64,000 nucleotides of DNA from Planctomycetota bacterium (GCA_018694835.1 JABHOG010000015.1:7362-71361), one strand, 5' to 3'. Positions 30,054-41,906 are shown, counted from the stretch's first letter. The notes: generated by a model from the letters alone, not told the origin. A program made the numbers and translations.

Positions 30054-30526
30054 TGTCACATGAGCCACTACGCCACCGGATGATGTGGATACCGCTGATT
30101 TTAGTTTCCCTCGCTGGATGTAAACACATCCCCGATGTCGATCGCCATTTTCAACGCTCTGCCGCACTTGAAACGGTCCGATACTTTCGCTACGCCATCG
30201 ACGCCAGTCAGTACGACGCCGCATACCGCTGTCTTTCTGAAACGACACGAGAACAGATATCGGCTCTCGCTTTCCAGGCTTTGATCCGTTTTGTGGACGT
30301 TCCACAACTCGATGATCTGGGCCTCAGAGACTTACTGGTGGATTCCAGTATCGACGATGGTGTCGAGGTCCCTCCGGGAGGGGGGCAGGATCGCTGGATC
30401 ACCCTCATATGGAGTTCGGATGAGCAGTACATCGAATACTCTCTGCGGCTCCAGCCCGGCTTGAATCAACTCTGGGAAATCGAACTGTTAGCGACCCGTG
30501 GTGTCGACCTGACAGGTACCCCGTGA
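30053..30526 (+). CDS. Hypothetical lipoprotein
   Basis: Start overlaps BFN stop (GTGATG). Lipobox LILVSLAGC. No family recognised. Confidence 0.55.
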   Translation: MSHEPLRHRMMWIPLILVSLAGCKHIPDVDRHFQRSAALETVRYFRYAIDASQYDAAYRCLSETTREQISALAFQALIRFVDVPQLDDLGLRDLLVDSSIDDGVEVPPGGGQDRWITLIWSSDEQYIEYSLRLQPGLNQLWEIELLATRGVDLTGTP

Positions 30527-31680
30527 AGTTGAATACTTACCTGGATCACAACGCAACGACTCCCTTGCACCCCCAGGTGGCTGAGAAGATGCATCAGTGT
30601 CTACAGGGGGCTGCCCCGGCCAATCCGTCGAGCTTGCATCGACACGGTCGGGACGCTCGGAAAATCCTCGACGATGCTCGTGACCAACTCGCCTCATTAC
30701 TGGCGGTGGAATCCTCCGAACTCCATTTTACCAGTGGTGGTACCGAATCGAATAATCTGGCGATCAAGGGGCTGGCCCCCATCGATGCCCCGCTCTTTGT
30801 CGGGGCCACCGAACATCCTTCGGTGCTCGAACCCGCGCGGCAACAGTGGCAAGAGGGTCGTCCAGGTGGTGTGCTCGAAGTGGACCGTTCGGGCAAGATT
30901 CGCGATTTCGAGGTGGTCAACGGGGCTCTCTATTCGATCCATTGGATCAATAATGAGACCGGGATCAGCCAGGAGATCCCGAAGCTTGCTCGCCATATTC
31001 ACGAAGGCGGCGGACGGCTTCACATCGATGGTGCCCAGGGTTTTTTTCGTATCCCCAAGACGATCCCTGAATTGTCGGTAGATGCCGCAACCATCACCGC
31101 CCACAAGTCCTTCGGGCCGGTTGGTGCGGGCGCTCTGTGGGTCAAAACTGGACTTCTCATCGATCCACTTCTTCGTGGCGGGCCACAGGAGAAGAAAATC
31201 CGACCCGGAACCGAAAACCTGCTGTCGATCACGGGGATGGGAGAACTGGCTCGAGTTTCGCGTAGCACGCCCTTGTGGGACCTGGCGGCACTTCGACTCG
31301 CCAGAGAGGCGCTGTTACTGCCGATGCAGCAGATTCCGGACTGCAAGATCATTCCCCATCAAGAAGATGACTGGCCCGGTTGTGTTCATGTCAGTTTCCG
31401 CGGTGTCCACGCCGAGACCTTGCTAGTCCGACTCGACATGGACGGGATCTCCGCATCGAGTGGTTCCGCTTGTTCTTCCGGTGCACGCGAACCCAGTCAT
31501 GTTCTCGAGGCGATGGGAGTGGACCTCGAATGGATCCGTGGTGCGATACGGCTGTCGCTGGGACCGGTCGAGCGAACCCCGCAGAACTCCATCGACCAGC
31601 TCTCGAAGGTAGGCGCCCAAATCGCAGCCATCGTCAACCAACTGCGCACTCGAGACTTCCAAACACCCCCGGGTGGATAA
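30523..31680 (+). CDS. Cysteine desulfurase (NifS/IscS family, class V aminotransferase)
   Basis: GTG overlaps preceding stop (GTGA). HNATTPL, TSGGTESNN, PLP-lysine context ITAHKSFGP, active-site loop SSGSACSSG. Confidence 0.9.
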   Translation: MKLNTYLDHNATTPLHPQVAEKMHQCLQGAAPANPSSLHRHGRDARKILDDARDQLASLLAVESSELHFTSGGTESNNLAIKGLAPIDAPLFVGATEHPSVLEPARQQWQEGRPGGVLEVDRSGKIRDFEVVNGALYSIHWINNETGISQEIPKLARHIHEGGGRLHIDGAQGFFRIPKTIPELSVDAATITAHKSFGPVGAGALWVKTGLLIDPLLRGGPQEKKIRPGTENLLSITGMGELARVSRSTPLWDLAALRLAREALLLPMQQIPDCKIIPHQEDDWPGCVHVSFRGVHAETLLVRLDMDGISASSGSACSSGAREPSHVLEAMGVDLEWIRGAIRLSLGPVERTPQNSIDQLSKVGAQIAAIVNQLRTRDFQTPPGG

Positions 31681-31716
31681 AAAAATAAGCCGGGGCCTCG
31701 ACGAATCGAGACCCCG
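31677..31716 (-). terminator. Intrinsic terminator downstream of the MamK-like gene (minus strand)
   Basis: Minus-strand hairpin CGGGGTCTCG ATTCGT CGAGGCCCCG followed by GCTTATTTTTTTA. Sits between the convergent nifS and MamK-like stops. Confidence 0.55.
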
Positions 31717-31752
31717 ACTAAGAAGGGGGGGAGTGCAATGGGATGGCGCGAT

Positions 31753-32850
31753 TTAACCGCGCATTCTTGTCCAGTACTCTGTGGGCATCTCCTGGGCCAA
31801 CTTGAGTGCACCCTGAGCACCGGCGTAGACCGGGTCGTCGACGATCAGGACTCGACCGCCGCCCAGGCTTTCGAGACCCTGCTCCAGTGATTCCTGGAGG
31901 CCAAACACCTGTGAGCCACCGCCGCTGACGATGATTCTATTTCGAATCAGATGCTGGAATTCTGGATCAAAACTAGCGACCAAGCTTTGGATCGCTTCGG
32001 TGATCCAGGGGACCAATTCTTCCACGGCGCTGCGAATCTGATCGGTGATATCCACCGGAGTCGGGCGCCCGGCTATCGGGAAGGTCACGATCGCCCGTTT
32101 CTGCGTGTCGATCACACTACTGAATCGTTCCTTGGCCATCTTGATCATGTTGGAAGTGAATTGCACCTCCGGATGGGCCTCCCGTACCAGTTCGGCGAGT
32201 CTCTGGTCGACGTAGTTTCCTGCGCGGAATACGGTGACCTGATCCTCGAGTCCGGGCAGGCTGCCCGCCATTCGACACAGATCTATGGTTCCCGCACCGA
32301 TGTCGATGACGATGGCGTTTTCCAGAGCGTCGAGTGCGTAGGCCACGGCGAACGGTTCCGACACGACCATCACGCCTTCGATCCCTGCCTCGTTGGCCAG
32401 ATCGACGATGGCTTGTTTGTTTTCACGAGTCGCTTCTGCCGGAGCACCGATCACTGCGCATACCGCCTGGTCAGGCCTTGGATTGCACGCCTTACGCAGC
32501 GCCGAGAGCAATTGCACTCCTGCCTGGCGAGACAAATCCTGCTCCGATCCACTGAGACGGGTAAAGGCCAGGTTGCCCTCCTTCAGCGGAAAACAGGTAT
32601 TGAGAGCGAGGCGATTCTTGAGCACCGCATCTCCCACCAGAGTTTGGCCGCCGAGAACCTTGGCCGAGACCGAGTCCTTTGGCCAACCGACCAGACTGGC
32701 CATCACATCTCTGGATCCATTGGAACCGGCGATGGCGCTCCTGCTGGTTCCCAGGTCGATTCCTACGTGCAGCAAGCTCGTCTTGGAACTGATCTTGGGA
32801 GACTTCACGTCGTGGTGCTGATTCTTCTGAACTTTTTTCTGCGGCTTCAT
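31753..32850 (-). CDS. MamK-family actin-like ATPase
   Basis: 365 aa. Actin-fold phosphate 1 HVGIDLGTSRS, connect/phosphate 2 VIDIGAGTIDL, adenosine motif IIVSGGGSQ. Long blocks recalled as near-identical to MamK (LVGWPKDSV, CAVIGAPAEATRENKQAIVDLA, VVSEPFAVAYALD, LPGLEDQVTVFRAGNYVDQRL, SFDPEFQ, DDPVYAGAQGALKLAQEMPTEYW). Distinct from the canonical MreB at 40768..41814. ATG overlaps upstream gene stop (ATGA). Confidence 0.85.
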   Translation of the reverse strand: MKPQKKVQKNQHHDVKSPKISSKTSLLHVGIDLGTSRSAIAGSNGSRDVMASLVGWPKDSVSAKVLGGQTLVGDAVLKNRLALNTCFPLKEGNLAFTRLSGSEQDLSRQAGVQLLSALRKACNPRPDQAVCAVIGAPAEATRENKQAIVDLANEAGIEGVMVVSEPFAVAYALDALENAIVIDIGAGTIDLCRMAGSLPGLEDQVTVFRAGNYVDQRLAELVREAHPEVQFTSNMIKMAKERFSSVIDTQKRAIVTFPIAGRPTPVDITDQIRSAVEELVPWITEAIQSLVASFDPEFQHLIRNRIIVSGGGSQVFGLQESLEQGLESLGGGRVLIVDDPVYAGAQGALKLAQEMPTEYWTRMRG

Positions 32851-33581
32851 GACGACCTACCTTCTCTAGGCTGGGAGGGGAGATCTCCCGATAGTGGCTC
32901 TTCCGAGATTGCGCGGAGAGCCACGTTGGCCTGGAACAACTGGTCCAGGAGTTCTGATTTCTTGTGATCAAAGGGGGACTTCACTTCCAGCTGATCGATC
33001 TCGAGGTCGCCGCCTACGGCGATCGCATGATCGGTGGCTTGAAGTGCCAGGGTCAATTCTTCAATTCTCATCTCGAGCCTTTCGACATGTGTGTTCTGAG
33101 TATCTCTCACAGTCGCCAATTCGGTTCTCCAGTCGCGAGCGATCAGCTTCGATAGCTGGATCAGCAACGCTTTCTCTCTCTTGCCGAGAGGACCATCCGA
33201 GGCACTGGTAGAAGCCTGCTCAGCCGCCGCAGGCGTTGGGATCGACGGGATGATCGGAGACGGAACTTTGATCATCGGATTCGTGACTACTTTTTCCTCT
33301 TGGATCACTTTCGTGGCCTCACCACGTTCCACTGGAGTTGCGACAGTGGGGGACACGTACTGATTCGCCCTCGCAAGGATCTGTTGGTGCTGCTCCGTGG
33401 AGAGCGCCAGTCCATCCAGCATCTCCAGCAGTGCTCGGGAGACCGCTTTTCGGGCGGTATCTCGTAGTTGTGCCGGTGTCACGACACGAATCTTCTGAAT
33501 TCCCTTTTCCTGTAGTTCCTTCAACGGATGCACCGAACTGTTGGTAATCGACAGTGGGCTGTCAGCAGATTCAGGCTTCAT
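32847..33581 (-). CDS. Hypothetical protein with Pro-rich linker and C-terminal coiled coil, translationally coupled to the MamK-like actin
   Basis: 244 aa, ATG with aaagg SD. Linker VPSPIIPSIPTPAAA, coiled-coil-prone RTELATVRDTQNTHVERLEMRIEELTLALQ. No family recognised. Confidence 0.6.
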   Translation of the reverse strand: MKPESADSPLSITNSSVHPLKELQEKGIQKIRVVTPAQLRDTARKAVSRALLEMLDGLALSTEQHQQILARANQYVSPTVATPVERGEATKVIQEEKVVTNPMIKVPSPIIPSIPTPAAAEQASTSASDGPLGKREKALLIQLSKLIARDWRTELATVRDTQNTHVERLEMRIEELTLALQATDHAIAVGGDLEIDQLEVKSPFDHKKSELLDQLFQANVALRAISEEPLSGDLPSQPREGRSS

Positions 33582-33987
33582 CGTCGGACCTTTCTTCGAG
33601 GTGGCATTTGCGCCGCGGTTCGAAGGAAGAGTGAGGCAAATGGCGTGCCCGCTGTGGATGCCGCGTCGAGACGTATTTCGGTGGGGAATAATCGGGAGCG
33701 ATAAACCGATTCGGTGCCATCCGTACAGGAAGTGGATATTCCAGATTTCGAATCAGAGTTGTAATGTGGGGGGTGCCGTAAACAAGGGTGAAGTGATACA
33801 ATCGGTCTCTCTGACCGTAGTTCTGCCCTGAGAATCGGTGAGATGAGGAAGAAATGAGCCTGGCTTAAAGTTGCTTCTCGGCCCTTGCGGGGCCCATAAT
33901 AAGCAACTGTCCCGCTGCCAAGGTGCTCAGAATTACTCTTTCTCAGTCCAACTTCGAACCAATTCGACTGCTGAACAGGAGATTCCG

Positions 33988-35307
33988 ATGTCCTACTTTC
34001 ACATCCTCATGAGGATCGCCATGCTCTCGATCTTGCTCCTGGCAGGTCAAAGTGTTCTGGCTCAGGATCCCGGATATATCTTCCATTTTGATACCAGTGG
34101 ATCGGGTCCTTCCGGTGCCACCGTCATCACTCGTTCCTTGATCGACAATCCTGGCGGCGATCTGGCGGGATGGTCCGTCGCCATTTGCCACGACTCCAAT
34201 ATCGAGATCGTCGAGGTGGCCAGCGGTACGGCTTCCACTACCGCAAATGCCGGTGGACCCGCTGATTTCGATGAACTCACCCTCTTCCCAGGTTTTGGAG
34301 TGAGGCAGGGAGTAGTCGTCAATTTCGTTGGACTCAATAACCTACCGATTTCAATGGGTCACGAGACGATCATCATGCAGACCCTGTTACTGGGACCCGA
34401 CGACACCTTTGCCAGCATCCAGTTCTGTTCCGAAGTGTTCCCCGGTGATGCTCAGATATCAGAGAACCTCGCCGTGGCTCCAGGCGGAATCGCCATCGTC
34501 CCGACCACCGAAAATGGGTTGATCGAGATTGGTGGAATGCTGCCCTTCACCCTCAGTGCCAGTGCTTCCGCCGCAACAGTGGAGCAGGGCCTGGATGTAG
34601 ATGTTCAGATCCTGATCGATGCTCCCGAGACCAACTACGGATTCTCCTTTGGCTTTGCTCACTCCGGAGATGCTTTGGCTCTGACCAGTGCCGACCCTGG
34701 TGCTGCGCTCAGCGGATTCAACGGCGGTGCCGGTCCCGAGTACCTGCTGATCGATATCGATCCCGAAGGCGCCTCTGGACTGATCGTCGCCTGTCTCTAT
34801 GCGATCACTTCCATCAGCGAGATGTCCGCAGGTAATAATCAAGAACTGATCGTGGGGCACTACCAAGCGCTCGACACCTCACCACTTGGTTCAACCAACC
34901 TCGATTTCTCCTCCGACCTCGTGACCCAGGCTCCGTCGCCACCGACCGCCATCATCGTCTCACTGGGCTCCGGTTCTGCGGCGGTCAACACCAGCGGTAC
35001 CAGCGTCGAAGTCCTTGAAGGTGTCGTGGGAGTCCAGTTCACCCGTGGTGATTTCGATGGCAACGGCAACCTCGACCTGGGCGACCCGGTCAACCTGCTC
35101 GGTTACATGTTCAACGGTGGTGCACCTTCTCTGTGCGAGAAGAACGCCGATATCGATGACGATGGAATCATCGTGCTGGGGGACCCGGTTCTGCTGCTGA
35201 GCTACATGTTCAGTGGAGGCCCGCCACCACAGGAGCCGTTCGATTCCTGCGGGATTGATCCGACCGAGGATAACCTGACCTGCGAAGCCTTCGATTCCTG
35301 TCCCTAG
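33988..35307 (+). CDS. Secreted Gly/Ala/Ser-rich protein with C-terminal dockerin-like repeat pair
   Basis: ATG 33988 with aggag SD 7 nt upstream, signal peptide MSYFHILMRIAMLSILLLAGQSVLA. C-terminus DFDGNGNLDLGDPVNLLGYMF..ADIDDDGIIVLGDPVLLLSYMF with a Cys-containing tail. Longest ORF starts at TTG 33871. Confidence 0.75.
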   Translation: MSYFHILMRIAMLSILLLAGQSVLAQDPGYIFHFDTSGSGPSGATVITRSLIDNPGGDLAGWSVAICHDSNIEIVEVASGTASTTANAGGPADFDELTLFPGFGVRQGVVVNFVGLNNLPISMGHETIIMQTLLLGPDDTFASIQFCSEVFPGDAQISENLAVAPGGIAIVPTTENGLIEIGGMLPFTLSASASAATVEQGLDVDVQILIDAPETNYGFSFGFAHSGDALALTSADPGAALSGFNGGAGPEYLLIDIDPEGASGLIVACLYAITSISEMSAGNNQELIVGHYQALDTSPLGSTNLDFSSDLVTQAPSPPTAIIVSLGSGSAAVNTSGTSVEVLEGVVGVQFTRGDFDGNGNLDLGDPVNLLGYMFNGGAPSLCEKNADIDDDGIIVLGDPVLLLSYMFSGGPPPQEPFDSCGIDPTEDNLTCEAFDSCP

Positions 35308-40767: not shown

Positions 40768-41814
40768 CTAGAAATCGTCCTCGATGGAGTCGAGGACAGA
40801 AGAATACTCATCTAGTTTTTCCAGAAAAATTGCCGTCCCTCTGGCAACACAGGTTAATGGGTCGTCAGCAACGCGGACAGGCAATCCGGTAGCCTTACGG
40901 ATCTTCTCATCGAGTCCTCGTAGCAGGACTCCTCCGCCACAAAGTACGATTCCACGCTCGACCAGATCTGCACACAACTCGGGATCCGTTTTCTCAAGTG
41001 AGGATTTGATCCCTTCGATAATCTGGTCCACCGGAGGTTGGAGCGCCTCGCGAATTTCTTCGCTGGTGATCCGGGTACTGCGCGGAAGGTTGCCGATCAA
41101 ATCTCGACCTTTGACCTCCATCTCGAGTTCAACTTCGAGTGGGTACGCCGATCCGATCTTGATCTTGATCTGCTCCGAAGTCAGTGGCCCGACCAGAATG
41201 TTATAGGTGTCTTTGATGTACTTGACGATCGCCTCGTCCATATCGTCACCTGCGACTCGCAGCGAAACACTGGTCACGACATCCGCCAGCGAGAGCACGG
41301 CGATCTCTGTGGTTCCGCCACCGACATCGACCACCATGCTGGCGATCGGCTCCTCGATGGGAAGCCCTGCACCGAGTCCTGCTGCGCGAGGCTCTTCGAC
41401 CAGGTAGACCTTCCTGGCTCCAGCCCGTTCGGCAGAATTGTAAACCGCACGTTTCTCGACTGCAGTGATGCCGCTGGGAACAGCGATGACCACGCGGGGG
41501 CTGAAGAAGCGAGATCGATTCTGAACCTTCCTGATGAAGTACTTCAACATCGCTTCGGTGATCTCAAAATCTGCGATCACACCGTCTCGAAGAGGTCTCA
41601 CGGCTTCGATGGAGGTGGGGGTTCTTCCCATCATCTCCTTGGCGACACTACCGACCGCTCGCCCATTGAGGAGAACCTGGTTGCTGCCGGCCTTGACCGC
41701 CACTACCGAAGGCTCATTGATGACGATTCCACGCCCACGAACACATACCAGTGTGTTGGCAGTTCCAAGATCAATCCCTAGATCGGTGGAAAACCGACCC
41801 ACCAGGGAGTTCAT
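40768..41814 (-). CDS. mreB: Rod shape-determining protein MreB
   Basis: ATG 41814 gives MNSLVGRFSTDLGIDLGTANTLV... (longest ORF from TTG 41841). MreB motifs VVAVK, IVINEP, GGGTTE. Confidence 0.95.
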   Translation of the reverse strand: MNSLVGRFSTDLGIDLGTANTLVCVRGRGIVINEPSVVAVKAGSNQVLLNGRAVGSVAKEMMGRTPTSIEAVRPLRDGVIADFEITEAMLKYFIRKVQNRSRFFSPRVVIAVPSGITAVEKRAVYNSAERAGARKVYLVEEPRAAGLGAGLPIEEPIASMVVDVGGGTTEIAVLSLADVVTSVSLRVAGDDMDEAIVKYIKDTYNILVGPLTSEQIKIKIGSAYPLEVELEMEVKGRDLIGNLPRSTRITSEEIREALQPPVDQIIEGIKSSLEKTDPELCADLVERGIVLCGGGVLLRGLDEKIRKATGLPVRVADDPLTCVARGTAIFLEKLDEYSSVLDSIEDDF

Positions 41815-41906
41815 CCAAGTGTGTGCTGTTCGAAATACCAAGAGTTATACTCCTCGCCCATCTCCGCAGTGAACGGTCTCACCAATTCTGCGGAAACGAT
41901 TCCCCT

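Follow-up and report, generated by a model that had tools for sequence, protein, structure and literature searches.

Two genes on the minus strand of the window (the whole 64-kb stretch of planctomycete DNA that was analysed) encode a 244-residue protein, hereafter the partner (32847..33581), and a 365-residue MamK-family, saltatorellin-type actin-like ATPase (31753..32850). Both were read as translated open reading frames, the second being assigned through profile, PDB and structure comparisons, and the stop of the partner gene and the start of the actin gene share an ATGA overlap, exactly as in the original prediction. Through this overlap the gene pair is, as judged from the sequence, translationally coupled. 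The proposed intrinsic terminator at the end of the two-gene unit is also real and strong: a hairpin with a 14-bp stem (9 G-C) and a 4-nt loop (31688..31719, minus strand) is directly followed by a T-tract with the tail TATTTTTTTA (approximately 31678-31687, minus strand). Since the terminator lies 8 nt beyond the end of a convergent cysteine-desulfurase-like gene (30523..31680, plus strand), it may serve both directions. Upstream of the partner gene, a divergent intergenic region (33582..33870) is presumed from its position to contain the promoter; no sigma-70-like site was scored within it.

The actin is the second of its kind in the window, as had been proposed. After a genuine mreB (40768..41841, minus strand; 467 bits against Pfam MreB_Mbl) come mreC, an ORF of 196 aa where mreD would be expected, a transpeptidase of PBP2 type and a gene of the RodA/FtsW family, this cluster being 3.4 kb distant from the actin pair. 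The product of the pair's actin gene shares only 24% identity with the window's own MreB and scores 75.4 and 62.6 bits against the NCBIfam MreB models, well short of their cut-offs of 293 and 365.75. The broad Pfam MreB_Mbl model, on the other hand, matches it above threshold (81 bits vs 27), which accounts for the database label ‘rod shape-determining protein’ carried by relatives.

The assignment to the MamK family was assessed quantitatively in several ways. Against the NCBIfam MamK model (NF040964) the protein aligns over profile positions 1-330 of 335 and scores 390.4 bits, its best match overall, although this is some 10 bits under the curated cut-off of 400, a threshold that distant relatives reach. 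Among relatives, L039 (412.1) and L049 (407.0) both pass and L013 (398) does not; by these scores the model boundary cuts through the planctomycete clade and the window actin is a near miss. A PDB search ranked MamK first (E 4e-82), ahead of BeeR (1e-29) and MreB (1e-10). Identity to MamK of strain AMB-1 is 41% over 337 residues, a figure that may be compared with the 35-53% identity of accepted MamKs of magnetotactic bacteria (MTB) to that of M. gryphiswaldense (PMC10653835 Table S1B). The AF2 model (pLDDT 88.7) has the MamK filament subunit 5ljv_A as its top Foldseek match, with a TM score of 0.94. The NCBIfam ParM model gives only 23.8 bits (cut-off 417). Profiles, PDB matches, identities and the predicted fold thus concur with the earlier claim that the protein is of MamK type, MreB, FtsA and ParM all being far more remote from it.

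All the stretches quoted in support of that claim (HVGIDLGTS, VIDIGAGTIDL, IIVSGGGSQ, LVGWPKD, CAVIGAPAEATRENKQAIVDLA, DDPVYAGAQGALKLAQEMPTEYW and VPSPIIPSIPTPAAA) are present in the translations, and the three nucleotide-binding motifs GIDLGTS, DIGAGT and GGGS are intact. The phosphate-1 motif GIDLGTS (residues 30-36; 32743..32763, minus strand) aligns with its MamK counterpart and is invariant in alignment A4, which comprises 52 actin sequences. In the phosphate-2 motif VIDIGAGTIDL (residues 181-191; 32278..32310, minus strand), D183, I184, G185, A186, G187, T188 and D190 are invariant in the same alignment, and the motif is preceded by a VVSEPF segment aligning with VVSEPF of MamK. The adenosine-binding motif IIVSGGGSQ (residues 306-314; 31909..31935, minus strand) contains the invariant G310, G311, G312 and S313. 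At the N-terminus, residues 1-23 make up a disordered tail rich in Lys. The window protein would bind ATP and probably forms filaments.

Relatives of the actin were found in 48 genome loci, all of them Planctomycetota MAGs or probable mis-bins. In a neighbour-joining (NJ) tree the planctomycete actins form one clade, with MamK AMB-1 outside it in 87 of 100 bootstraps; this is the only MTB MamK in the tree, from which the Saltatorellus Poly30 sequence is absent. The expected placement within the MamK clade is thus overstated: in this tree the planctomycete proteins occupy a clade of their own beside, not inside, the sole MTB MamK included. As predicted, no magnetosome-type genes are present in the 64-kb window, where the other large ORFs, when scanned with Pfam, gave housekeeping genes only, so that the actin lies, as judged within 64 kb, outside any magnetosome gene cluster (mamA/B/M/Q/I/E/O/P). 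Mam-type neighbours are likewise lacking from the flanks examined of 49 related loci. On this evidence the actin-partner module appears unrelated to the magnetosome system.

MamK-type actins outside magnetosome systems are already known from Planctomycetota and so are not new. The MamK passages of a bioRxiv preprint (Wiegand et al., 10.1101/817700) describe saltatorellin, a MamK-like actin of the non-magnetotactic Saltatorellus ferox Poly30, whose heterologous expression, in E. coli as well as in M. gryphiswaldense, yields filaments. Like the window protein, it is a planctomycete actin closest to MamK and additional to MreB, and its C-terminal YWEQLK, as read from a primer published there, is common to many loci of the window gene's family. 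The window protein differs in belonging to a separate marine sub-clade (L001-L013), with approximately 45% identity to the YWEQLK-type sequences. It probably belongs, on sequence grounds, to a Planctomycetota-wide ‘saltatorellin’ subgroup, and is likely an orthologue of the Poly30 protein. The homologues from Phycisphaera and Poly30 serve as MamK sequences in a paper on MTB (PMC10653835), and some relatives are already labelled ‘MamK family actin-like protein’ by the NCBI pipeline. The MamK passages of the saltatorellin preprint make no mention of an upstream partner or of the kinase-like ATPase described below. A further comparison is with BeeR (PMC11929497, PDB 8r2n), an actin from Verrucomicrobiota that builds three-stranded tubes. 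This second-best PDB match is also a MamK-related actin with a disordered N-terminal tail from a non-magnetotactic PVC bacterium (PMC11929497), but it shares only 29% identity with the window actin, which scores 171 bits against the BeeR model NF053558 (cut-off 530).

The partner, in agreement with the original description, matches no family in Pfam or NCBIfam (Mam families included), and no literature on such a family was found. An exhaustive HMMER search with a profile of the window-clade partners recovered only 40 homologues among 1.84 billion cluster representatives, and in word-index searches every homologue with a named source was a planctomycete ‘hypothetical protein’. The protein is cytoplasmic, with a pI of 5.7 and no predicted transmembrane segment. 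Its AF2 model (pLDDT 66, pTM 0.22) is moderately confident outside the helices and yielded no informative structural neighbours; it nevertheless matches the predicted layout of N-terminal module, Pro-rich linker and long C-terminal helix. The N-terminal module (residues ~15-78; 33348..33539, minus strand), defined from alignment A1 and AF2, comprises a conserved KGIxKxRVV segment and two helices (36-57 and 62-76, pLDDT ~70-80) and is basic (pI 9.3); in the L045 and L046 orthologues a GGDEF domain takes its place. The linker (residues 79-127; 33201..33347, minus strand) is predicted to be disordered (pLDDT <50), contains 14% Pro and is unconserved in A1. In distant orthologues this region is longer, of other sequence and not Pro-rich.

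The C-terminal part is better preserved. A single long helix (residues 134-189, pLDDT ~90; 33015..33182, minus strand), presumed to form a dimeric coiled coil, carries a motif LExRIxxLxxxL found phylum-wide, and R172, L176 and L180 are invariant or nearly so in A2, an alignment of 30 partner sequences with identity down to 13%. It is followed by the family's best-conserved element, the helix PFDHKKSELLDQLFQANVALR (residues 203-226; 32904..32975, minus strand), modelled by AF2 at 206-226. Its pattern KKxELxxxIFxANLxL is an invariant block in A1, and in A2 K208, A218, N219 and L222 are invariant and F216 is at least 90% conserved. The hydrophobic moment of this helix is low and it is not amphipathic, making it unlike a membrane-targeting helix; its conservation marks it as a candidate actin-contact element. 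The partner thus appears modular, with the coiled coil and terminal helix kept across the phylum and a variable N-terminal module.

Conserved synteny, the lack of which would have counted against the pairing, is pronounced. Of the 46 loci across the phylum that could be tested, 45 have a partner homologue directly upstream of the actin gene and in the same orientation, despite its divergence to about 15% identity. The adjacency holds though flanking genes differ between clades, and it spans lineages whose actins are only ~45% identical. The intergenic gap ranges from -4 to ~90 nt in most loci, and start/stop overlaps recur. Among all ORFs of the 48 loci there were no off-target matches to the partner. 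Because a partner homologue adjoins the actin so regularly, the two genes appear to constitute a conserved chromosomal two-gene cytoskeletal module, co-inherited phylum-wide. The partner evolves much faster (mean identity 28%, vs 60% for the actin), and pairwise identities of the two proteins correlate with r = 0.87, a value that common vertical descent could produce by itself. In the L047 lineage a different coiled-coil ORF is found upstream of the actin.

The best explanation, which we hold to be reasonably probable, is of a non-magnetosome two-gene module in which a MamK-family actin operates with a dedicated accessory protein acting on its filament. The actin would polymerise with ATP and the partner would dimerise, probably through its long coiled coil. 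The C-terminal module (coiled coil plus KKxELxxxIFxANLxL helix) most likely contacts the actin filament and the variable N-terminal module most likely ties it to some other cellular component or signal, so that the partner, like MamJ for MamK, would serve as an adaptor, a regulator of filament dynamics, or both. A dedicated filament adaptor or regulator is the partner's most likely role. MamJ, a repeat protein of strongly acidic character, is unlike the coiled-coil partner with its pI of 5.7, and the partner matches no NCBIfam or Pfam profile, those of Mam families included. The Magnetospirillum MamK/MamJ system also differs in its magnetosome gene surroundings, but shares the actin fold, the filament-state subunit being the best structural match here, and the position of its accessory gene: the proposed analogy with mamJ-mamK holds in that mamJ too lies directly upstream of the actin gene (PMC10653835). 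Conceptually similar are the Mad20/23/25/26 coiled-coil proteins of deep-branching MTB which, according to PMC12748827, network with MamK and Mad28. These dedicated coiled-coil proteins of MamK-type filaments are magnetosome-specific, and profile searches with the partner gave planctomycete hypothetical proteins only.

MamJ and LimJ promote MamK turnover, and the partner might, in the same way, mainly regulate filament assembly (through nucleation, bundling, capping or turnover), or belong to a tyrosine-kinase or c-di-GMP signalling circuit controlling the filament, rather than be a cargo adaptor, the kinase gene having been lost or moved in the window's clade. We consider this unlikely, if far from negligible. 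At least 21 loci, as well as L049, encode a BY-kinase-type ATPase (132.6 bits against TIGR01007, cut-off 108) directly upstream of the partner-actin pair; its presence in many relatives means that the two-gene picture may be incomplete, or that the partner may interact chiefly with the ATPase. A Tyr-containing motif, SIYRxVQGL, is conserved in partners of distant clades, the same clades in which the kinase gene occurs, though not at every locus. The GGDEF fusions in L045 and L046, and a PilZ protein near the L047 actin, point in the same direction. Against this, the 64-kb window contains no homologue of the ATPase and the Tyr motif is absent from the window clade, where the pair is nonetheless kept and, by its overlap, coupled; a kinase role would on that account be dispensable for the core pair.

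It is highly improbable that the module serves DNA segregation in the manner of ParMRC, the partner being a ParR-type adaptor with its N-terminal strand-helix-helix on DNA and its C-terminus on the filament end. ParM/ParR of plasmid R1 and AlfA/AlfB do resemble the inferred arrangement in that a single operon encodes both an actin-like ATPase and its own small adaptor, and their adaptors use a short conserved C-terminal element, in ParR a ParM-binding tail that the conserved partner helix resembles. The N-terminal module is moreover basic and, speculatively, KGIxKxRVV and the two helices could give a ribbon-helix-helix (RHH) upon dimerisation. However, the analogy drawn with parR-parM fails on gene order, parR lying downstream of parM in plasmid R1, and the ParM models remain far under their cut-offs. 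No iterated or centromere-like repeats were found in 33400-34000, only short two-copy chance matches; no Pfam RHH family matches the partner at E ≤ 1 and no ParR family does so either; and in some orthologues a GGDEF domain stands in place of the N-terminal module. The locus is chromosomal, with vertical inheritance across the phylum, and plasmid or phage genes were not seen in the window or the flanks examined.

There is a very small chance that the genes are simply co-transcribed neighbours without functional link. What was measured is co-inheritance, and the partner is poorly conserved overall. Yet the adjacency persists across divergent actins and differing flanks, start/stop overlaps are recurrent, and the few partner homologues recovered from the cluster representatives (by a sequence search, occurrence away from the actin being possible) argue against a chance association.

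Scarcely credible, finally, is a genuine magnetosome MamK in an undetected magnetotactic planctomycete with its gene cluster beyond the window: cultured carriers of homologues (Phycisphaera mikurensis, Saltatorellus) are not known to be magnetotactic, and the high similarity to MamK and the existence of magnetotactic Planctomycetota (Phycisphaerae SG8-4 and UBA1845; PMC7449369) are outweighed by the position of MamK AMB-1 outside the planctomycete clade, the absence of Mam-type neighbours from the examined flanks of related loci and the 64 kb of housekeeping surroundings here, mamK of MTB sitting inside the magnetosome gene cluster. Other Mam genes accompany just 227 of the 2798 MamK-like sequences from metagenomes.

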